Source of the DNA: Myxococcales bacterium
GTDB lineage: Bacteria; Myxococcota_A; Polyangia; Nannocystales; Nannocystaceae
Direction of reading: 5' to 3'
Assembly (NCBI GenBank): GCA_020633315.1
Contig: JACKDV010000004.1
Coordinates: forward strand, 320,071-384,070
Length of the DNA: 64,000 nt
A program made the position numbers and the translations under genes. The notes below the pieces were generated by a model. It searched no databases and was not told the DNA's origin. It saw only the letters and a program-made list of their open reading frames with translations. Below are positions 39,889 to 59,442 of the stretch, one piece after another (position 1 is the stretch's first letter; each line of letters starts with the position of its first letter).

Positions 39889-42800
39889 GTGACGAGCTCG
39901 CGCCCCACCGATCCCTCCTCTCCCGAGAGCCAGGCCTGGCTCCGTCAGGTCCGCGCCAACGTCAAGGCTCAGCTCTTCGGGCCCCCGCTGTCGAGCGATC
40001 CGCCCAGCGTCCCCAGCCAGGAGCGGACCGAGCTCGGCGAGGGCGAGCAGGCGAGCCGCGAGGAAGTGGCCGAGCCCACCCGCATCGGCCGCTTCGTCGT
40101 CATCAAGCGCATCGGCGAGGGCGGCATGGGCATGGTCTACGCCGCCTACGACGACACCCTCGATCGCAAGGTGGCCGTCAAGCTGCTGCACCCGCGCGGC
40201 TCCGAGGCCAGCCCCGACGCCCAGGCCCGCCTGATCCGCGAGGCCCAGGCCCTCGCCCGCCTCTCGCACCCCTCGGTCATCCACGTCTACGAGGTCGGCA
40301 CCTGGCAGGACCAGGTCTACGTGGCGATGGAGTTCGTCGACGGCACCACCCTGGCCCACTGGCAGCGGCAGGAGGGGCGCACCTGGAGGGAGGTGCTCGA
40401 GGCCTACGTGGCGGCGGGGCGCGGGCTCGCGGCCGCCCACGCGGCGGGCATCGTGCACCGCGACTTCAAGGCGGCCAACGTGCTCGTGCGCACCGACGGC
40501 GCCGTGCGGGTCGTGGACTTCGGGCTCGCGCGACAGGAGATGGAGCTGAGCTCGCGCCCGGCCGAGCTCTCCGAGGAGACGCCCAGCCTCTCGCTGCCCT
40601 CCGGCGAGAGCATGACCTCCCCCGACGCGCCACTCACCCGCACCGGCGTCATCATGGGCACGCCGGCCTACATGGCGCCCGAGCAGCACCTGGGCCAGCG
40701 CGCCGACCTGCGCAGCGATCAGTTCTCCTACTGCGTGTCGCTGTACGAGGCGCTCTACGGCTTTCGGCCGTTCCCCGGCGAGACCCTGCCCAAGCTGCGC
40801 CGCAACGTGCTCGCGGGGCGCTTCGAGCAGCCGCCGCGCTACACCGACATCCCGCCCCGGATCTTCCGCGTGCTCGAGCGCGGCCTGCAGGTGCACCCCG
40901 ACGATCGCTACCCGTCGATGGAGCCCCTGCTCGACGAGCTCACCCACGATCCCCGGGTCGCGCTGCAGCGCGTGGCCTGGGGCCTGCTGGTGGTGGCGCT
41001 GGTGGGCGCGGTGGGCCTGCTGTGGTGGTCCGAGCGCGAGGAGCGGGAGGCCCGGTCCGAGGGCGAGCGCCTGCGCGCCCAGTTCGAGCGCGCGCGGGTG
41101 CTCAACGCCGAGGACGAGCTGCGCCGCGCCCAGTCCCGCTCGGTCTCGGAGAAGTACGACGACCTGCTGCTCGCCTACGCCCGCGAGGTGATCGACGACG
41201 ATCCCACCGCGGCCCTCGCCACGCTCAAGCACCTCACCCCCACCAACGACGGCTGGCTGCCCGCGGCCCGCACCATCGCCGCCGACGCGATCCAGCGCGG
41301 GGTGATCCACCGGACCCTCGAGCCCGGCCTGGGCCGGCTGGCCCGAATCGCCTTCGCCGAGGACGGCTCGCTGGTGATGGCGGGCAAGGGCCTCGCGCGG
41401 TGGGACTCGACCACCGGCGAGCTGCAGTACCTCGAGACCCCCGTCGCGCCGCTGCGCGACCTGGCGATCACTCCCGAGGCCACCCGCATCGCCGCGGTCG
41501 GCCGCGACGACGCGCTCTACCTGTGGACCCGCGGCCAGGGCACCTCCGATCCCGGCACCATGCGCCGCATCCCCGACGCCGACGGGCCCCTGGTGGCGGT
41601 GGCCCTGTCCCGCGACGGCCAGCGCATCGCCACCGGGGCCGAGGACGGCACGGTGCGCCTGCTCGACTGGGACGGCCGCAGCACCCGGGCCATGCGAGAT
41701 CACAAGGGGGCGATCCGCTCGCTCGACTTCTCGGCCGACGGCAGCATGCTGGCCAGCGCCAGCGACGACGGCACCATCCGGCAGTGGTTCCTCGAGCGCG
41801 AGACCCACTGGAGCCTCGAGCACGGCCCCGGGGTGAGGGACGCCCGCTTCGACGGCCAGGGCATCGCGATCTGGTCGGTGTCGGAGGACGGCGAGGTGCG
41901 GCGCTGGTCCACGGCCAAGGGCAAGCCGCTGCCGGTCTCCGGCTACGACGGCGTGACCCTGCTGCAGCGCAGCCCCTCGGGCGAGCACACCCTGGTCTGC
42001 CGGGGCGATCGCGAGCTGATGCTGCTCGGCGACGGCGACCCCCAGCCGCTGCGCGGCGTGCATGCCATCGTCAACGCGATCGCGGTCTCCGACGACGGCG
42101 CGTGGGCGGCCGCGGCCACCGGCGAGCAGGTCCGGCTGTGGCGCCTGACCGGGATCGGCGACCTCGGCACCCAGCCCGACGGCTCGCGCATCACCCCCAC
42201 CGCGGGACCCCTCACCGCGCTGGCCTTCTCGCGGGCGGGAGGGCTGCTGGCCTCGGCCACCCGCCAGGGCCTGGTGCAGCTGTGGTCCGAGCAGGGCGAC
42301 CCCCGCGGCGACCTCGGCCAGCACAGCCGCACCGTGATCGACCTGGGCTTCTCGCCGCAGGGCCACGAGCTGGCCGCCATCGACGAGGACGGAGGCATCA
42401 TCGTGTGGTCGGTGGCCGATCGCGACCAGCCGCCGGTGCAGCTACGGCGCGAGGGCTCCCGGCGCTCGGCCGCCTGGGCGTGGTCACCCGACGGCGAGAC
42501 GATCGCCGCGCCGCGCTGCGACGGCATGGAGCACTGCGAGGTCGCGCTCTACCCGATCACCGGCGAGGAGCCGCAGGCCCTCGCCGTCACCGACTCGCCC
42601 GCGATCACGCTGCGCTACTCGCCCTCGGGGCTCACCCTGCTCAGCGATCATCCCACCGACGCCTGGCTGTGGGCCCTGCCCGAGGGGCGCGGCCGTCCGC
42701 TCGAGTGGCCCGACGGGGTCCCGGCTGGCGAGCGCCTCGCCTTCGCCTACGTGCACGGGGGCCTGCGCATGGCGACGGCCGAGGTGCTGCGCGACGAGGA

Positions 42801-51333: not shown

Positions 51334-52179
51334 TCAAAAGCGCAGCGTGGCCGCGATCCCGGCGCCTCGTCGCGAGGCCCAGGGCGACAGTCGGGCGCGA
51401 CCGGCCACGCCCTCGGCGGGCTTGCGCTTGACGGAGACGATCACCAGCACCAGGCCCGTCACCGCCATCGCCCCGCCCACGCCGAACAGCACGTCGGCGC
51501 CGAGGGCCAGGCCGCGGCCCTTGTCCACGGTGTCGCTGCGCTCCTCGTAGGTGTGCTGGTCGGCGAGGGCATTGCTGCGCGACAGGGCCAGGCCCCCCAG
51601 CGCGCCTGCGGCCCCCAGCGCCGCGCCGCCCGTACCGAGCAGCACGTAGCCGGCGATCCGCATCGGCGGGGTGCGCTTGCGTGGCTCGGGCTCGGGCTCC
51701 GGCTCCGGCTCGCTCACCGGCTCCGGCTCGGGCTCGGGCTCCGGCTCGCTCACCGGCTCGGGCTCGGGCTCCGGCTCCTTGACCGCGGTCTCCTCGAGGA
51801 TCGCTCGCAGCACCCGCAGGCGCTCGAGCCCCTTCTCGCGGGCCTCCAGCGGCACGCCGGGCTCCTTGACGAAGCGCTCGTAGTACTCGACCGCGCTCTC
51901 GAGGTTGCCCTGCTCCTCGCGGATCCGGCCGATGTTGAACAGGTAGTTGGGCTCGGGCTGCAGCGCGTAGGCCTGCTCGAACAGCTCGACCGCCTCGTCG
52001 TACTCCTTGGCCTGGAACTTCTCCACCGCCTCGGAGTTGAGCGCGTCCACCTGCTCCTGCACGGAGGGGCCGGCCCAGGCCACGGAGGGGACGGCCGCGA
52101 GGCCCAGGGCGAGCGCGACCGTGCCCGCGACGACCGACCGCAGGGTGCGGCCGGGATGGCTGTGAGAGCGCTGGTTCAC
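51334..52179 (-). CDS. TPR-repeat membrane protein with signal peptide, a (PEPEPEPVSE)n linker and a C-terminal TM segment, about 281 aa
   Basis: GTG start overlaps the TGA stop of the upstream kinase (GTGA). Signal peptide VAGTVALALGLAAVPSVAWA. A 48-bp DNA tandem repeat at about 51660-51790. Confidence 0.5.
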   Translation of the reverse strand: MNQRSHSHPGRTLRSVVAGTVALALGLAAVPSVAWAGPSVQEQVDALNSEAVEKFQAKEYDEAVELFEQAYALQPEPNYLFNIGRIREEQGNLESAVEYYERFVKEPGVPLEAREKGLERLRVLRAILEETAVKEPEPEPEPVSEPEPEPEPEPVSEPEPEPEPEPRKRTPPMRIAGYVLLGTGGAALGAAGALGGLALSRSNALADQHTYEERSDTVDKGRGLALGADVLFGVGGAMAVTGLVLVIVSVKRKPAEGVAGRARLSPWASRRGAGIAATLRF

Positions 52180-54917
52180 TTGCCTCCGACGGGCAGGAAG
52201 ATACCGTCGTCCTTGCCCTGCTTCGAGTCCATGAAGACCTCGGGCTTGGGCTTGGGCTTGGGCTCGGTCTTCGCAAAGGGATCGGGCGTGGCCGAGGTCT
52301 TGGGCTCGGTCGAGGTCTTGGGCTCGTCGGTCCGGGGCTTGGTGCGCTTGCTGCCCTTGCCCTTGGTGTCGCCGGGAGCCGGCGTGGGCTCGCTCGGAGA
52401 CGACTCGGCCGGCACCAGCTCGGCGGTCACGGCACCATTGGCTCCGGGTCGGACGTCGATGGTGGTCTGCCAGGCCACGTGGCCCTCGGCGGTCACGCGC
52501 ACCCGATGCGCCCCCAACGGCAGCTCGAGGTGGACGGGGGCCTCGCCTCGATCCTCGCCGTCGACCTCCACCCGCGCCCCTTCGATCGCGCGGACCTCCA
52601 CGGTGCCCACGTCGGCGGCGGGCTCCTCGTCGCCCGGCGCCGCCGCGACCGCACCGTCCTTGGGCGACTCGCCGGGCACCGGCGCCGCGACCTGGGCCGG
52701 AGGATCGCGCGGCGCTTCCTCGCCGCCATTGAGGATGAGGTAGGCGAACAGCCCGCCCAGGGTGAGCGCGGCCAGGCCGGCCACCGCGACGATCACCCCG
52801 AGCCTCATGCCCCCATCGGAGGCCGCGGGCGGCATGCCCACGAAGGTGGCCGGCTGCCCCAGGGCATCGGAGGCAAAGGGCACCGTGGGCGAGGCCGTCT
52901 CGGGTGAGGTGCCGACCGAGCCGGTGTCCTCGTTGAGGCCGACGACGTCGTCGTCCTCTTCCTCCTCCACGGAGATCGACAGGGCGTCGGAGACCTCGGC
53001 GTCGAGCAGCGGCGGGATGGTGGTGCGCCGGGCGGTGTTGCGCTCGTCGTCGAGCTCGAGCTCGAGGCGCTCCACCGCTTCCTTGGCGTCGGCCTTGGTC
53101 ACCCGCACGGTGGCGGCCCCCGGGCGATTGCCCGACTTGATCGGGGCCCGGGTCACCGGGGCATCGGAGATCGGAGCGCCCACCGGCGGGCTGGTGGTCA
53201 GCGGCTCGGGACCCGACTCCACCCGCGGCAGCGGCCGCGCCGCAGAGCCCAGCCGCGGCATGGGTCGCGCACCCGAGCCCGACTTGGGCAGCGACCGCAT
53301 ACCAGAGCCCGGCGTGGGCGGCGTGGGCGGCAGCGGTCGCACGCCGGAGCCCGGCGTGGGCGGCGTGGGCGGCAGCGGTCGCATACCAGAGCCCGGCGTG
53401 GGCGGCGTGGGCGGCAGCGGTCGCATCCCGGAGCCAGACCTCGGCCGCGGCTGCGCCCCCGAGTCCGGCGTGGGCGGCAGCGGTCGCGCCCCAGAGCCAG
53501 GCTTCGGCAGCGGCACCGCCCCAGAGCCCGCGTCGCTCGGCAGCGGTCGCACCCCAGAGCCCGTCCTCGGCAGCGGCACCGCCCCAGAGCCCGCGTCGCT
53601 CGGCAGCGGTCGCGCGCCCGAGCCCGGCTTGGGCCGAGGCATCAGCCCCGAGCCCGTGGGCGAGCGCAGACGGGAGCCTCCCGGCGGAGGTGGTGGTGGA
53701 GGCGGAGGCGGCATCGCCCGCGCCCCCGAGCCCGGCGTGGCCACTCGCGGCCGTGGCCTCACCCCCGAGCCCGTCGGAGATCTCTTGCGCCTCGGCAGCT
53801 CCTGCTGGGCCTTCTCCTTGAGCGCGGCGATCTCCTCCTCGGCCAGCTTGAGCGGGGCCTCGCCCGTCCGCGCCGCCTTGCGCAGCAGCGGTCGGGTCCA
53901 CTCCGCGCTGTCGGAGGTGTCCGACTTGAGCGCGGCGATGTTCGCCGCGCCCGAGCTCATGCGCGCCGCCCAGTAGGTCTCGGCCGCCACCCGGCTCTTG
54001 GCGGTGGCCTCGGGCAGCTCGAACAACGGCGCCGGCACGATCTCGAACAGCGCCTCCGCCATCGCGGTGGCGTCGACCGGTCGATCGTCGGGCTCCTTGG
54101 CCAGGCAGCTCTCGATCAGCTCGACGAGCTTGGGGGGGATGCGGTGGTTGGTGGGCAGGCGCTCGACGAGGCGCTTGGGCTTGCCGTGCACGTGGTTGAC
54201 GAGCACCGCCGCGTCGTTGTCCCCCGAGATCGGGGTCTCCCCCGTGAGCATCAAGAAGAACAGCACCCCGAGCGCGTACACGTCGACGCGGACGTCGATC
54301 TTCTCGCCACGGATCTGCTCGGGGGACATGTACGCCGCCGTGCCGATCACGTGGGCCTTGGTGACGTCGTCCTCCTCGTCCTCCTCGATCAGCCGGGCGA
54401 GGCCGAAGTCGAGCATCTTGACGTGGTTGGCCTTGCCCCCGTGCTCGCACAGCATGATGTTGGGCGGCTTGATGTCGCGCATCATGATGCCGCGCTCGTG
54501 CACGTAGCCGACCCCCATGAGGATCTGCGAGACGATGGGGACGAACTCCTCGAGCGGCAGGCGCTTGCGGCGATTGAGGTAGCGCCGCAGCGGCTCGCCG
54601 CGGATGAACTCCATCACGATGTACGTGCGGCCCTCGAAGTGGCCGTGGTCGTACATCTTCACCACGTTAGGGTGATCGAGCTCGGCCATCCGCTTGGCCT
54701 CGCGGTCGAAGCGGACCACCGCGTCGCGGTCCTCGGCCCAGTGCGGCGCGAGCACCTTGACCACCACCTCACGATCGCCGTCCTGCGTGTCGGTGGAGAG
54801 GTAGACCAGCCCCACCCCGCCCCGACCGATGAGCCGCTGGATCACATAGCGATCACCGACCGTCTTCCCGAGGAGAGGGTCATGGGAGAGCGAGTTGGTG
54901 GCCGACTGCGTCACCAT
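52176..54917 (-). CDS. Ser/Thr protein kinase with Pro-rich SGxRPLP repeats, a TM segment and a C-terminal PEGA domain, 913 aa
   Basis: Kinase motifs IGRGGVGLVY, MRDIKPPNIML, DFGLAR, YMSPEQ. Repeats coded by about 60-bp DNA tandem repeats (53240-53600). PEGA-like VEVDGEDRGEAPVHLELPLGAHRVRV. Confidence 0.85.
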   Translation of the reverse strand: MVTQSATNSLSHDPLLGKTVGDRYVIQRLIGRGGVGLVYLSTDTQDGDREVVVKVLAPHWAEDRDAVVRFDREAKRMAELDHPNVVKMYDHGHFEGRTYIVMEFIRGEPLRRYLNRRKRLPLEEFVPIVSQILMGVGYVHERGIMMRDIKPPNIMLCEHGGKANHVKMLDFGLARLIEEDEEDDVTKAHVIGTAAYMSPEQIRGEKIDVRVDVYALGVLFFLMLTGETPISGDNDAAVLVNHVHGKPKRLVERLPTNHRIPPKLVELIESCLAKEPDDRPVDATAMAEALFEIVPAPLFELPEATAKSRVAAETYWAARMSSGAANIAALKSDTSDSAEWTRPLLRKAARTGEAPLKLAEEEIAALKEKAQQELPRRKRSPTGSGVRPRPRVATPGSGARAMPPPPPPPPPPGGSRLRSPTGSGLMPRPKPGSGARPLPSDAGSGAVPLPRTGSGVRPLPSDAGSGAVPLPKPGSGARPLPPTPDSGAQPRPRSGSGMRPLPPTPPTPGSGMRPLPPTPPTPGSGVRPLPPTPPTPGSGMRSLPKSGSGARPMPRLGSAARPLPRVESGPEPLTTSPPVGAPISDAPVTRAPIKSGNRPGAATVRVTKADAKEAVERLELELDDERNTARRTTIPPLLDAEVSDALSISVEEEEDDDVVGLNEDTGSVGTSPETASPTVPFASDALGQPATFVGMPPAASDGGMRLGVIVAVAGLAALTLGGLFAYLILNGGEEAPRDPPAQVAAPVPGESPKDGAVAAAPGDEEPAADVGTVEVRAIEGARVEVDGEDRGEAPVHLELPLGAHRVRVTAEGHVAWQTTIDVRPGANGAVTAELVPAESSPSEPTPAPGDTKGKGSKRTKPRTDEPKTSTEPKTSATPDPFAKTEPKPKPKPEVFMDSKQGKDDGIFLPVGGK

Positions 54918-55240: not shown

Positions 55241-56077
55241 GTGTCGCCTTCCGACACCGTCGTCGCTCCCCGCTTCGCGGGCACCGGCACCGTCGTGGCT
55301 CCCACGCCGGACGAGCCCCTGTTCGAGCTGCGAGGGATCCACAAGGCCTTCGGCGAGCTCGTGCTCTTCGAGGACACCTCGCTCACCGTGCGGCGAGGCG
55401 AGACCTTGTCGATCATCGGTGAGAGCGGCTGCGGCAAGAGCGTGTGGCTCAAGATGATGATCGGCCTGGTGCCGATCGACGCGGGGGAGATCTACTTCCG
55501 CGGCGACAACGTGCTGCTGATGGGCAACGAGGGCCTGGCCCGCCTGCGCCGCAGCGTGGGCTACCTGTTCCAGAACGGCGCGCTGTTCGACTCGATGACC
55601 GTGCTCGACAACGTGGGCTACGCCCTGCGCGAGCACACCACGATGGGCGACGAGCAGATCCGCGAGCGCGTGATCACCTGCCTGGAGAAGGTCAACCTCA
55701 GCCGCCGCATCCTCGATCAGTGGCCGGCCGAGCTCAGCGGCGGCATGCGCAAGCGCGTGGCGCTGGCCCGCGCCATCGCCATCGAGCCCGAGGTGGTGCT
55801 CTACGACGAGCCCACCCAGGGCCTCGATCCGCAGAGCATCACCATCATCGCCGAGCTCATCAGCGAGCTGCAGCGCGACCTCGACATCACCAGCGTGCTG
55901 GTCACCCACGACATGCGCTGTGCCTTCAGCGTCAGCGACCGCATCGCGATGGTGCACGAGCGCGGCTTCCCCTACGTGGGCACGCCCACGCAGCTCGGCG
56001 AGAGCACGGCCCCTGCGGTGCAGGAGTACATCTCCGAGGCCCTCGAGGAGCTGCAGAGCGCCACCCCCCCCGAGTGA
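55241..56077 (+). CDS. ABC transporter ATP-binding protein (MlaF/Ttg2A-like), 278 aa
   Basis: Walker A GESGCGKS, signature LSGGMRKRVALARA, Walker B VVLYDEPTQGLD. Confidence 0.85.
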   Translation: MSPSDTVVAPRFAGTGTVVAPTPDEPLFELRGIHKAFGELVLFEDTSLTVRRGETLSIIGESGCGKSVWLKMMIGLVPIDAGEIYFRGDNVLLMGNEGLARLRRSVGYLFQNGALFDSMTVLDNVGYALREHTTMGDEQIRERVITCLEKVNLSRRILDQWPAELSGGMRKRVALARAIAIEPEVVLYDEPTQGLDPQSITIIAELISELQRDLDITSVLVTHDMRCAFSVSDRIAMVHERGFPYVGTPTQLGESTAPAVQEYISEALEELQSATPPE

Positions 56078-56211
56078 GGGGGCCTCGGCCGACCACGGCC
56101 CGCCGCTCGCGGAGCGGCGTCTCGCGACCGCAGGCGGCTCCCGGAATTTCGGCCGATTTCGCGGCCCGAGGCGGCCGTACGCCGCGACCCGCGTGTTATT
56201 AGTGGTAGACG

Positions 56212-58176
56212 ATGGCAGAGCCCAACGAGTTCGTGTTCAACGGCGTCGATGGCTCGACCGGCGGTCCCCTCACCCGGCCCATGACCCCCGAGGAGGTCGC
56301 GGCCCTGGCCCTGGGCAAGGGTCGCGACGAGATCGACGACGACGCGACCGAGCACCACGAGAACGTCGAGAACTACCTGCCCCGCGCCGACGTGGACCCG
56401 CAGGATCTGGCGCAGGCGGGCTGGGGCATGATCTTCGCCCACGGGGCCGACCCCAAGATCCGCGAGGCCCTGCAGCCGCTGCTCGACTACCGTCGCGAGC
56501 AGGCGAGCCGGATCGACGAGCGCCGCTTCCGGCTCGTCGACGAGACCATGGGCTACCGCCCCGACGAGGGCAAGAAGAAGCTCCTGCGGCGCCTCAAGGC
56601 GCCCACCTCCGGCCCGGTCGAGCCCGATCGGCTGCCCTACTACCTGCTGCTGGTGGCGAGCCCGGCCGAGATCCCCACCGAGCTGCAGGCCCAGCTCGCG
56701 CTCCAGTACGCGGTGGGCCGCCTGTGCTTCCAGACCCCCGACGGCAAGACCGACTACGACGCCTACGACAGCTACGCCCGCAGCGTGATCGCCAGCGACC
56801 GGGGCGAGGTGGCGGTGGCGCGACGCTTCGGCCTGTTCGGGGTCAAGCACGATCGCGCCACCACCCTCAGCGCCGAGGGGCTGGTCGCCAACGTCCACCG
56901 CTACCTGGGCGAGCACTTCCCCGACTGGACCGTGGACCAGCGGCTGGAGGCGGAGGCGACCAAGGCCCAGCTCGGCACGATGCTCGGGGGCGACCAGACC
57001 CCGGCCGTGCTGTTCACGGCCAGCCACGGCATGGGCTTCCCCATGGGCGACTCCCGCCAGCTCGCGCACCAGGGCGCGCTGCTGTGCCAGGACTGGGACA
57101 AGAAGCCGGGGCGGGTGAGCGAGAGCTCGTACTTCGCCGGTGACGACGTGTCGGCCTCGGCCAAGCTCGCCGGCCTCATCGCGTTCTTCTTCGCCTGCTA
57201 CGGCGGCGGCACGCCGCAGCTCGACGCGTTCTTCCACCGCGCCGGCAAGGCCAGCGCGATCGCTCCGCGCCCCTTCTTCGCCCAGCTCCCCACCCGCCTG
57301 CTCGGCCACCCCCAGGGCGGCGCGCTCGCGGTGGTGGGGCACATCGAGCGGGCCTGGGGCTGCTCGTTCTTCGACGCCAAGTCCGGCTACCAGACCGCGG
57401 TGTTCGAGAGCTTCCTCTACGAGCTGCTCAGCGGCAAGCGCATCGGCAACGCCATGGAGCGCTTCGGCCAGCGCTACGGCGAGCTGTCGGCCGGGCTCGT
57501 CGACAAGCTCGAGGATCTCAAGTACGGCAGCAAGGAGGTCTCCGAGACCGAGGTCGCCAACGACTGGACCGAGAACAACGACGCGCGCAACTACCTGCTG
57601 CTGGGCGATCCCGCGGTCCGTGTGCCCGTGGTCGACGACGCCGAGGTGGCCCCGCGCCCCACCATCGAGGCCCGCAGCACCCCCGTGACCCAGTCGTCCT
57701 CGGGCGTGGCCCAGGCGCCCCCCGAGGGAGCCGGCGACGGCGTGAGCTACGGGTGGTTCTCCCGCGACAAGGACGAGGGGGCCGAGGCCGTCGCCGCCGA
57801 GGAGGGCGCCCCCCCGGAGGCCGCCGCCTCGGGCGGCGCGCTGGATTCCCTGCGGGGCTTCGTCGCCAAGCTCGGCGAGCGGATCTCCAGCGCCCTCGAC
57901 GACATGGCCCACCTCGAGATCAAGACCTACGTGACCAGCGAGATGGACCGCATCCAGGTGCGGGGCGACGACGTGGAGGGCGCCCAGCTGCGCGCCTACA
58001 CCCGCATCGCCCTCGACGGCGACATGGTGGTGTGCCTGCCCGAGCGCGACGGAGAGATCGACCGGGCCATCCTCGAGATCCACCAGCGCATGGTCCAGCA
58101 GGCGCAGACCACCCGCACCGAGCTGATGAAGACCATCGTGCAGGCCGCGGCCAGCCTGATGGGGCCCACCAAGTGA
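56212..58176 (+). CDS. Caspase/gingipain-like (clan CD, C25-like) cysteine peptidase homologue with N- and C-terminal extensions, 654 aa
   Basis: His-Gly after a hydrophobic strand (AVLFTASHGMG). About 60 aa later, Ala-Cys after a hydrophobic strand (LIAFFFACYGGG). A downstream YLLLGDPA motif. This is the His...Cys dyad arrangement of clan CD peptidases. Assignment is by motif only. Confidence 0.45.
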   Translation: MAEPNEFVFNGVDGSTGGPLTRPMTPEEVAALALGKGRDEIDDDATEHHENVENYLPRADVDPQDLAQAGWGMIFAHGADPKIREALQPLLDYRREQASRIDERRFRLVDETMGYRPDEGKKKLLRRLKAPTSGPVEPDRLPYYLLLVASPAEIPTELQAQLALQYAVGRLCFQTPDGKTDYDAYDSYARSVIASDRGEVAVARRFGLFGVKHDRATTLSAEGLVANVHRYLGEHFPDWTVDQRLEAEATKAQLGTMLGGDQTPAVLFTASHGMGFPMGDSRQLAHQGALLCQDWDKKPGRVSESSYFAGDDVSASAKLAGLIAFFFACYGGGTPQLDAFFHRAGKASAIAPRPFFAQLPTRLLGHPQGGALAVVGHIERAWGCSFFDAKSGYQTAVFESFLYELLSGKRIGNAMERFGQRYGELSAGLVDKLEDLKYGSKEVSETEVANDWTENNDARNYLLLGDPAVRVPVVDDAEVAPRPTIEARSTPVTQSSSGVAQAPPEGAGDGVSYGWFSRDKDEGAEAVAAEEGAPPEAAASGGALDSLRGFVAKLGERISSALDDMAHLEIKTYVTSEMDRIQVRGDDVEGAQLRAYTRIALDGDMVVCLPERDGEIDRAILEIHQRMVQQAQTTRTELMKTIVQAAASLMGPTK

Positions 58177-58769
58177 GCGCCCACGCCACCGCGCTCGCCG
58201 AGCTCGACCAGCACCTCGACGCCCGCCTCGACTCGCTGCGGCGTCGCGCCGAGGCCGGAGACGCGCTGTCCTTCGCCGCCCCGGGGACCGCCGAGGACGA
58301 CGAGCTGTGGGAGCTGGTGCGGATCGCCAACGGCGACGACACCGAGTCGCTGAGCTTTGCCGCGGGCGAGGAGGGCCGGCTGGCCCGCGCCCGACGGGAG
58401 CTGCAGGAGCTGCTCGAGCGGGCCGTGGACTCGGTCACCCAGCTCGCCGTCACCGACTCCCGCGCCGGGAGCTCGCGCGCCCACACCCGCGTGGGCTGGA
58501 CCGGGACCATCACCACCCACGTCGACGGCGGGGCCCCGGCCGCCCTGCTGCGGGCCCACGCGGCCGCGGTGGAGGGCGCGGTGTCCCGGAGCCTGCTGCG
58601 CCTGGAGCTGCTCACCCGCATCGCCGTCGCGGCGGGACGGATCGCCCGGCTGCTCACCAACCCGGGCTCGGCCGTGATGGCGCTGCCCATCGCCTACCGC
58701 TGCGTGCGCGACCTCTACGATCGGCTCCGGGGCGACGCCACCCCCGACGACGGCTCGCCCTGGCCGTAG
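58173..58769 (+). CDS. Hypothetical Ala/Arg-rich protein, about 198 aa, translationally coupled to the upstream peptidase-like gene
   Basis: GTG start overlapping the upstream TGA (GTGA). Coherent helical composition. Confidence 0.4.
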   Translation: MSAHATALAELDQHLDARLDSLRRRAEAGDALSFAAPGTAEDDELWELVRIANGDDTESLSFAAGEEGRLARARRELQELLERAVDSVTQLAVTDSRAGSSRAHTRVGWTGTITTHVDGGAPAALLRAHAAAVEGAVSRSLLRLELLTRIAVAAGRIARLLTNPGSAVMALPIAYRCVRDLYDRLRGDATPDDGSPWP

Positions 58770-58782
58770 CCGTCGGTGTGGC

Positions 58783-59442
58783 TCAGCCCGGCGCGGATGC
58801 GATCACGTGCAGCTCGATGCGACGGTTGACCAGGTTGGCCTCGCGATCGCGAGGGGGCACCAGCGGCCGCTCGCCCTCGAAGCCCACCGACTGCAGCCGC
58901 GTCCGCTCCACGCCGCGCTCGACGAGCTCATGGAGCACCGCGTCCGCGCGACGCTGGGTGATCTTGCGGGCATACTGCCCGTCGCGCGGGGTGGCGTTCT
59001 TGTGCCCCTCGATGCGCAGCTCCAGCGAGGGGTAGCGCAGCAGCAGCTCCGCGAGCTGGTCGATCATGGGCAGGCTCGCCGGCTTGACGTCCTCGTGATC
59101 GGGCGGGAACTCGATGCGCGGGGTGAGGATGCGGCTGCGATCGGCGAGCAGGCACGGCGCCGACGGTCGATGCCGCTCGTCGATGCCCTCGGCGCACAGA
59201 TCCTCGGGGCGGATCACCAGCTCGGCCGGGGTGGCCGGCGCCTCGGGCTCCGAGGCCTCGGGCTCCGGCGCCTCGGGCTCCCGCTCGGCTGTCTCCGCCT
59301 CCGTCGGAGTCTCCACGACGGACGACGGAGCCTCGACCGGCGTCGTCGAGGTGGGGGAGCCCTCGCCCCTGAGGCAGCCCCCCGTGCTCGCGAGGAGCAC
59401 CACGAGCCCCACAAGACCCGCGCGACGACGAGAGCCGATCAT
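58783..59442 (-). CDS. OmpA-family peptidoglycan-binding lipoprotein, 219 aa
   Basis: Lipobox LASTGGC. An acidic Pro/Glu linker. OmpA C-terminal motifs (LRIEGHKNAT..YARKITQRRADAV..NRRIELHV). Confidence 0.75.
   Translation of the reverse strand: MIGSRRRAGLVGLVVLLASTGGCLRGEGSPTSTTPVEAPSSVVETPTEAETAEREPEAPEPEASEPEAPATPAELVIRPEDLCAEGIDERHRPSAPCLLADRSRILTPRIEFPPDHEDVKPASLPMIDQLAELLLRYPSLELRIEGHKNATPRDGQYARKITQRRADAVLHELVERGVERTRLQSVGFEGERPLVPPRDREANLVNRRIELHVIASAPG

Follow-up and report, generated by a model that had tools for sequence, protein, structure and literature searches.

Locus and genes

We analysed a 64,000-nt (64-kb) stretch of DNA from a Myxococcales bacterium, the whole of which is called the window here, and studied a pair of overlapping genes within it. 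Gene A (56212..58176, + strand) encodes a predicted C25-like clan CD cysteine peptidase of 654 amino acids (aa) with a partner-type domain at its C-terminus. Gene B (58173..58769, +) encodes its 198-aa partner, which belongs to no known family. The name C is used for a stand-alone third protein of ~110 aa that occurs in related loci. The G+C content of the window is ~70%. The TGA stop codon of A overlaps with the GTG start codon of B (aaGTGAgc), and a gene for an MlaF-like ABC-type ATPase (55241..56077, +; Pfam ABC_tran, NCBIfam MlaF) ends 134 bp upstream of A as a neighbour outside the module. Our results indicate that A and B are very likely a conserved functional pair sharing a novel domain, to which the ABC ATPase is unrelated.

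An earlier note, made from the letters of this DNA alone, had listed three open reading frames (ORFs), namely the ATPase, the 654-aa ORF and a 198-aa ORF starting with GTG inside a GTGA stop, and had quoted three peptide strings from the 654-aa protein. All three ORFs and the overlap were found in the window, and the peptide strings were present when the codons were checked. The observation made in that note is confirmed, and its interpretation is supported by the results below. Protein A is 100% identical to hypothetical protein P0001 of a Myxococcales metagenome-assembled genome (MAG). Scanning 54.8-59.6 kb for promoters and terminators was uninformative, as it revealed neither promoter-like sites nor terminators, whether between A and B or downstream of the ATPase gene.

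Fold and catalytic dyad of protein A

The first ~470 residues of A (56212..57621, +) comprise a conserved N-terminal segment with an FNG.DG..G motif and a gingipain-type catalytic domain of two sub-domains, according to a 40-sequence alignment and the predicted structure. The codons of the putative catalytic dyad were located by alignment, model and codon check. His272 (57025..57027, +) stands in S-H-G right after the strand 266-270, and Cys329 (57196..57198, +) stands in F-A-C-Y-G right after the strand 323-327. Clan CD enzymes carry a His and then a Cys on the loops that follow two consecutive central strands (PMC4357240). In the predicted structure, the placement of His272 and Cys329 is this clan CD arrangement. 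The earlier note had pointed to a His-Gly...Ala-Cys dyad followed by a GDPA-type motif, and had advised checking the dyad in homologues. Both residues, together with the G-D-P-A motif at the end of the catalytic domain (residues 465-468; 57604-57615, +), were invariant in 40/40 homologues with 45-61% identity.

The AlphaFold2 model of A was built with 40 homologues. It had a mean predicted local distance difference test value (pLDDT) of 83.6 and a predicted template modelling score (pTM) of 0.74, and showed the caspase-type alpha/beta/alpha sandwich fold of clan CD. Comparison with clan CD structures, also advised in the note, returned a peptidase fold. The top Foldseek match was gingipain K (6i9a_A, E=5.5e-8, probability 1.0), followed by TPR-CHAT and SAVED-CHAT proteins, and PDB 8tl0 from the SAVED-CHAT to PCaspase system was among the structural matches. 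In structural alignment, RgpB (298 residues) and Kgp (313 residues) took the first and second ranks. The Pfam family Peptidase_C25 (PF01364) matched A with 25.6 bits against a gathering score of 23, over just residues 362-471 (profile positions 288-374). A precomputed PF01364 match is present in most A homologues, and the RefSeq pipeline names the plasmid-borne ones 'C25 family cysteine peptidase'. PDB sequence searches with A alone and with a 40-sequence profile gave chance-level matches only, so that Pfam and fold comparison alone reveal the link to gingipains.

Because ~300 residues align with the gingipains, most of what precedes the dyad belongs to the catalytic unit as its N-terminal alpha/beta sub-domain and is no foreign extension. 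Of the large extensions described in the earlier note, the C-terminal one is a separate domain after a linker, and the N-terminal one is mostly part of the gingipain-type unit.

No hydrophobic signal-like segment was seen at the N-terminus of A, as judged from the sequence with no dedicated signal-peptide predictor run, so A is presumably cytoplasmic. Pfam and NCBIfam gave no match to a C-terminal sorting domain of the type IX secretion system (T9SS) in A; an Ig-like domain was not specifically checked. Taken together, A is very likely a cytoplasmic C25-like clan CD peptidase with an intact dyad. That it is instead a secreted degradative or sorting peptidase of the gingipain/PorU kind, acting on extracellular or cell-surface proteins, is highly improbable, and both its architecture and its genomic context contradict such an enzyme.

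Partner B, protein C and the shared domain

When C proteins were used as tblastn queries, no C gene was found in the window and the only match was the 3' end of A. This match led to the finding of a domain shared by A, B and C, for which Pfam has no match. In A it forms the C-terminal alpha/beta domain (residues 543-654; 57838..58173, +), which consists of a helix, four strands and a long helix and is supported by hhalign, BLASTP and the model. The A C-terminus matched C with E=5e-8 in BLASTP and with a probability of 98.9% (E=2.6e-17) in hhalign. The core of B (residues ~69-140; 58377..58592, +) was assigned to the same domain by hhalign, alignment and model. It matched C with an hhalign probability of 94.4% (E=9.3e-8), and its match to the A C-terminus was weaker (79.9%, E=1.4e-5). 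Each copy of the domain has one invariant His, which is H624 in A, H129 in B and H85 in C, and His129 of B was invariant in 46 sequences.

Co-occurrence was counted in loci with >1.5 kb downstream of A. A B homologue directly followed long (full-length) A in 48/56 loci, so that the coupled small ORF of the earlier note is a real partner, and C was present in 43/56. In most loci C is the third gene, after B. Short A proteins, which are mostly cyanobacterial, are without the C-terminal domain; among 18 such loci, B was found in two and C in one. The presence of B and C with long A, and hardly ever with short A, fits the shared domain as a module through which A, B and C would interact.

The B protein of the window shares 46% identity with a Myxococcota copy and ~20-25% with Chloroflexota copies. 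A profile search with B gave 911 clusters (50% identity) in 1.8 billion representatives, and the best 150 matches shown were all small proteins of 156-311 aa. In a Pfam search of 46 B and 34 C sequences (E up to 0.01), no relevant family was matched, the sole hit being one B with Longin_2 (E=0.0078). The same sequences gave no member of EACC1- or Pepco-relevant families (0/46 B, 0/34 C) in a Pfam copy that may lack EACC1 and Pepco models. NCBIfam had no match for A or B.

In the AlphaFold2 model of B, three helices at the N-terminus are followed by three short strands and by a helical hairpin, which is long (123-160, 164-186). The best pLDDT was 79.4, and other models reached 63-72. The model rests on a shallow alignment of 14 sequences, because word-indexed searches with B gave just 9-11 relatives. 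YbaB (1pug), with the same helix/three strands/helix order, was the best Foldseek hit (E=0.58, probability 0.63); it was not significant and was not relied on. The C-terminal hydrophobic helical hairpin of B (residues ~141-186, ...AAGRIARLLTNPGSAVMALPIAY...; 58593..58730, +) was defined from the model and Kyte-Doolittle values. In the family it contains the most conserved and also the most hydrophobic stretch (...AAGKIA.LL..PGGAV[L/M]ALP.A[Y/W]). The median of the maximum Kyte-Doolittle value (19-residue window) was 1.71, and a value >=1.6 was reached in 73%, ~44 residues from the C-terminus.

Distribution and genomic context of the family

The A family contains at least 5,469 clusters at 90% identity and E<=1e-3 (among 8,000 candidates scored). 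The best 120 matches listed were mostly full-length, and the named ones came chiefly from Myxococcota and Chloroflexota. A scan of genome contigs with the single sequence returned no A relatives, and an alignment-based scan was needed. A pattern scan of one genome per species gave 537 A loci, 80 of which were fetched, and these add Cyanobacteria, Acidobacteriota and others. The family spans Myxococcota, Chloroflexota, Cyanobacteria, Acidobacteriota and plasmids of Alphaproteobacteria. Every source name returned for A and B was 'hypothetical protein', except for the plasmid homologues.

The neighbours of A were compared in these loci. The gene-neighbourhood analysis advised in the earlier note showed that B is conserved after A, and that a STAND or CHAT gene lies within 8 kb of A in 31/47 loci with >5 kb on both sides. 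Chloroflexota loci usually run from (C39-like peptidase with SH3 domains) through CHAT-SIR2, nSTAND1-WD40 and A to B and C. In Cyanobacteria the genes are, in order, (subtilase or lipoxygenase), hydrolase-like protein, short A and an nSTAND1-WD40 protein of ~1,600 aa. In other Myxococcota a divergently transcribed A paralogue stands first, then come A, B, C and a gene of the VanY family, accompanied by a CHAT-nSTAND1-WD40 gene. Two plasmids, a Sinorhizobium megaplasmid and one from Planktothrix, have the 'C25 family cysteine peptidase' among CHAT, a 1,595-aa ATP-binding protein and WD40 genes. The link to sensors was seen for the A family in four phyla and on these two plasmids. Kaur et al. 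2021 (PMC8195603) introduced nSTAND1 as a clade of STAND proteins from conflict systems directed against invaders. As nSTAND1-WD40 and CHAT(-SIR2) proteins stand beside A in most other genomes, the setting is that of a bacterial conflict system, for immunity or programmed death, and at family level the module probably belongs to the STAND/CHAT-type conflict systems.

Several other genes were observed in these neighbourhoods. The VanY-family gene (PF02557, D-Ala-D-Ala carboxypeptidase-like) is the fourth gene of the A-B-C cluster in three loci (L085:9936-10595, L087:9974-10582, L002:11031-11711), and at L092:1457-2086 it lies just before B. Its presence in Myxococcota loci hints at a cell-wall-directed component. 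The divergently transcribed A paralogue, found in several Myxococcota loci, has 545-596 aa (L002:6139-7893(-), L085:5030-6781(-), L087:5208-6842(-), L005:8170-9960(-)). SHG and FACYG are retained in it, a coiled-coil-like insertion lies close to its N-terminus, and the shared domain at the C-terminus is missing. It may act as a second protease or as the partner in a heterodimer. A ~500-aa protein with Peptidase_C39-like and bacterial SH3 parts (cluster 'c6') often precedes CHAT-SIR2 and was seen at L018:2499-4004 and in seven other Chloroflexota loci.

One Myxococcota MAG (GCA_039194325.1) encodes three paralogous A proteins (P0003, P0013, P0017) on three contigs. Two of its loci were inspected: L085 contains B, C, VanY and a CHAT-nSTAND1-WD40 gene, and L088 contains small downstream ORFs only and no STAND gene. 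Such an expansion within one genome is typical of conflict systems.

A recurrent short motif in A, B and a hydrolase-like neighbour

A short motif with the core [V/L]-[S/D]-[F/Y]-[G/A] recurs in the proteins of these loci. It was counted as [VLIA]-[SDE]-[FY]-[GAS] and compared with shuffled sequences. In A of the window, the motif VSYG (residues 511-514; 57742..57753, +) is located in a linker predicted to be disordered (residues 489-542; 57676..57837, +; pLDDT <50), whose length and sequence vary among homologues. The motif was present in the A linker of 73/115 homologues, against 7.7 expected from shuffled linkers (~9-fold), and always stood ~129 residues from the C-terminus.

The B protein of the window contains two LSFA copies. 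The first (residues 32-35; 58266..58277, +) falls in a low-confidence loop (pLDDT <50 at 33-35), and the second (residues 60-63; 58350..58361, +) falls in the loop just before the shared domain (pLDDT <50 at 59-63). The two copies coincide exactly with the two low-pLDDT loops of the model. At least one copy was found in 129/153 members of the B family, where ~22 were expected from shuffles, and at least two copies were found in 72/153, where ~1.6 were expected.

The third context is a conserved neighbour of the cyanobacterial-type short A. A lipase-type nucleophile-elbow motif, GHSFG, occurs in this protein of ~455 aa, together with a weak Pfam hit to the alpha/beta-hydrolases (Abhydrolase_8). 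The protein forms cluster 'c3' and lies just upstream of short A at L056:8474-9844, L015:11996-13363 and 13 other loci. VSFD, VSFG (14/15 sequences) and IDFD occur in it at conserved, indel-rich positions. By analogy with the alpha/beta-hydrolase module of Evans et al. 2025, this protein could be a protease-licensed zymogen. The motif was not conserved in the CHAT-SIR2 proteins. In a variable loop of C, x-D-F-D occurs in about half of the sequences; it is erratic and too weak to use.

Since the motif occurs in three unrelated contexts that are tied genomically to the peptidase, we read its copies as candidate recognition or cleavage sites; VSYG in the linker would be a candidate (auto)cleavage or docking site. 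Judged from the sequence pattern, the aromatic residue possibly takes the P1 position of a cleavage site and the small residue the P1' position. Clan CD peptidases hydrolyse peptide bonds with a strict P1 preference. A hydrophobic P1 specificity, for Leu, is known for the clan CD enzyme MARTX-CPD (PMC4357240).

These data also bear on the function of B. If A is the same peptidase, B might be its regulator or adaptor (a membrane anchor, inhibitor or chaperone) that would bind A by way of the shared domain and keep it inactive or localised, and the real substrates would be other proteins of the cell or of an invader. The translational coupling and the near-obligate co-occurrence of A and B are as compatible with a stoichiometric binding partner as with a substrate, and the shared domain implies A-B binding. 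Some bacterial caspase-like defence proteases act without a dedicated effector (10.1101/2025.11.14.688446), and B resembles no known toxin. However, the same motif in the B loops, the A linker and an unrelated hydrolase-like partner forms a pattern seen more typically with substrate sites than with the interface of an inhibitor, and the hydrophobic hairpin is the most conserved part of B. A purely regulatory B is therefore rather unlikely in our judgement.

The copy in the window and its neighbours

The ATPase gene upstream of A was compared with Mla systems. It matched NCBIfam MlaF with 195.7 bits against a cut-off of 441, so the Mla equivalog score was not reached. No membrane or MCE gene (MlaE, MlaD) adjoins it, in agreement with the description in the earlier note of a lone MlaF-like ATPase without a permease, and a PADLOC search with it gave generic ABC-type matches only.

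The ATPase, the protease and B could in principle form one unit, for example for ATP-driven export or processing, as the three genes adjoin each other in one orientation and no permease accompanies the ATPase. However, an ABC ATPase stood next to A in none of ~90 related loci. One of these is the Logan contig SRR14234040_48656 (L091), which has the same arrangement of A, B and an OmpA-like gene as 56212-59037 of the window; its upstream gene is different, yet its downstream OmpA-like gene is 98.8% identical. The 134-bp gap between ATPase and A also differs from the overlap of A and B. The ATPase was rejected as a member of the module because it is not a conserved neighbour of A in any related locus, and a three-gene unit is largely refuted and extremely improbable.

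The B protein of L091 is 99% identical to that of the window. Its A protein is 100% identical to window A over residues 262-654 and merely ~35-40% identical over residues 1-261. Two origins are possible for the L091 A gene: recombination, giving a mosaic allele whose breakpoint lies just before the catalytic His, or an assembly that joined paralogues into a chimera.

The pair in the window is flanked on its two sides by genes of the - strand. A Ser/Thr kinase with a PEGA domain (52176-54917, -; Pfam) precedes the ATPase. Its PEGA domain is C-terminal, and the protein contains long Pro/Gly/Ser-rich near-repeats (GSG.RPLP...PPTPPTPGSG...) that resemble a tandemly repeated linker. An OmpA-family lipoprotein gene (58783-59442, -; Pfam) follows B. 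A WD40-repeat ORF at ~41260-42780 (+), to which no NTPase part was matched, lies 14 kb from the A-B pair and is probably unrelated.

Proposed mechanism

There is about an even chance, in our estimate, that A and B of the window are a reduced copy of a widespread and undescribed A-B-C protease-effector conflict module. As such they may represent a new protease-triggered defence or cell-death module. The shared domain would hold A and B, and C where present, in one complex. Once activated, the peptidase A would cut the motif in its own linker (VSYG 511-514) and the motifs in the B loops (LSFA 32-35, 60-63). Cleavage would then release a part of B with the domain and the hairpin, whose most plausible target is the membrane. 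EACC1, Pepco and the gasdermins are the analogues for our tentative proposal that the peptidase cuts these motif sites and that the freed domain-plus-hairpin part attacks the membrane. The complex formation, the cleavage at the motif, the membrane effect and the role in defence are what we infer from the comparisons above.

A fuller version of this reading is also conceivable, and we regard it as doubtful. A-B(-C) would be an undescribed class of proteolytically licensed death effector, in which the C25-like peptidase acts downstream of nSTAND1-WD40, possibly as the second step of a cascade from CHAT to C25, and cuts behind the aromatic residue of the [V/L]-[S/D]-[F/Y]-[G/A] sites in its linker and its partners. 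The released paralogous alpha/beta domains would co-assemble, and the hairpin of B would then breach the membrane. In Cyanobacteria, the same peptidase and site would license the alpha/beta-hydrolase zymogen instead.

A number of results weigh against a protease-effector conflict module at this locus. Some concern the family. The association of A with STAND/CHAT genes is frequent and not universal. PADLOC-DB v2 gave no match for A or B at E up to 1, and a collection of phage genomes yielded no homologue. When the B model was compared with the PDB by Foldseek, no significant hit was obtained and no pore former was matched. The motif might serve for docking instead of being cut, or the neighbouring CHAT protease, and not A, might cut it. 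Others concern the window copy itself. The C, VanY, divergent A paralogue and STAND/CHAT genes of other Myxococcota loci are missing from the window (tblastn for C, STAND and CHAT). The STAND and CHAT queries matched only the unrelated WD40 ORF at ~41.3-42.8 kb, so no sensor link is seen here. The hairpin of window B has a Kyte-Doolittle value of 1.08, the lowest of the family, and contains three Arg residues.

With so many companions missing, the window copy could be an orphan, that is, a remnant of an A-B-C-VanY and CHAT-nSTAND1-WD40 system whose function was lost in this genome. The least hydrophobic hairpin of the family, found in its B protein, would suit such a loss. However, both ORFs are intact and keep the start-stop overlap and every family-invariant residue, so A and B are probably not decaying. 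The independent metagenomic contig L091 has the same A+B arrangement, and seven sampled loci carry B without C. The sensors could also be encoded elsewhere in the genome, as the source contig alone has 588 kb. A functionless remnant is therefore improbable.

Significance

The gating of effectors by proteases is becoming recognised as a main principle of bacterial immunity, and it parallels the caspase-gasdermin signalling of animals. A protease with a small latent effector linked to STAND sensors is an already known kind of system. In the libraries and papers searched, however, no description was found of the family of C25-like proteases, of the domain common to the three proteins or of the motif. 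If the reading as a protease-effector module is true, a gingipain-type protease would join the defence repertoire, and a new small effector fold would be common to the enzyme and its partners. A simple cleavage motif would also allow the substrates to be predicted genome-wide. The importance is limited by a logic that is not conceptually new and, at this locus, by the lack of a sensor. The A+B copy in the window would be a convenient two-gene system for tests of cleavage and toxicity without giant sensor proteins.

Comparison with known systems

Protein A was compared with the gingipains RgpB and Kgp (MEROPS C25, clan CD), with which it shares an identity of just 12-13%. Unlike them, A combines a conserved segment at its N-terminus with a disordered linker and with a C-terminal domain that is novel, and gingipain secretion features were not found. 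The architecture of secreted gingipains, with signal peptide, prodomain, Ig-like domain and T9SS C-terminal domain, differs from that of A. The candidate sites of A have an aromatic residue next to a small one, whereas gingipains cut at Arg or Lys. The setting also differs, being a conflict system and presumably cytoplasmic for A, and virulence for the gingipains.

Known protease-effector modules include EACC1-caspase, Pepco-protease, alpha/beta-hydrolase-caspase, MBL-protease and gasdermin-protease pairs (PMC7159879, Kaur et al. 2020; 10.1101/2025.11.14.688446). In the MBL and alpha/beta-hydrolase modules, as well as in the Pepco and EACC1 ones, latent death effectors are freed by site-specific cleavage (10.1101/2025.11.14.688446, Evans et al. 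2025). Two of these four abundant modules are pore formers, and all recombine with many sensors (10.1101/2025.11.14.688446). Like these modules, the A-B locus has a protease gene tightly paired with a gene for a small non-enzymatic alpha+beta protein, and the partner contains a hydrophobic helix that is conserved and has many small residues. Recombination of the pair with STAND sensors and its enrichment in multicellular or filamentous bacteria are common features too. The logic of a latent effector licensed by site-specific cleavage would be shared as well, as the motif suggests for A-B.

Several features set the A-B locus apart. A is C25-like, and the proteases of the known modules are caspase/CHAT-like or serine proteases. 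The protease gene comes first, with B on its 3' side, whereas EACC1 lies 5' of its protease. B is longer (198-270 aa) than EACC1 or Pepco (~110-120). A itself carries a paralogue of the partner's domain, and there is often a third paralogous protein, C, plus a VanY-like gene in Myxococcota. None of the ten module families of 10.1101/2025.11.14.688446 corresponds to A-B(-C).

A further comparison is with the nSTAND1-centred systems of PMC8195603. Most A-related loci have nSTAND1-WD40 paired with CHAT or CHAT-SIR2, and the window is without nSTAND1. The text and supplements of PMC8195603 make no mention of C25 or gingipain, and the A-B-C genes appear unnamed there. Literature searches found no paper on the A-B-C family.

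Type III CRISPR systems reportedly use a proteolytic cascade from SAVED-CHAT to PCaspase, which Steens et al. are said to have described in 2024. The A-B-C loci differ from this cascade in that the sensor is a STAND protein rather than a cyclic-oligoadenylate-binding SAVED protein, A is C25-like and the motif is not conserved in CHAT-SIR2. As in that cascade, two clan CD proteases, CHAT and A, are encoded together, which suggests a possible two-step cascade below the sensor.

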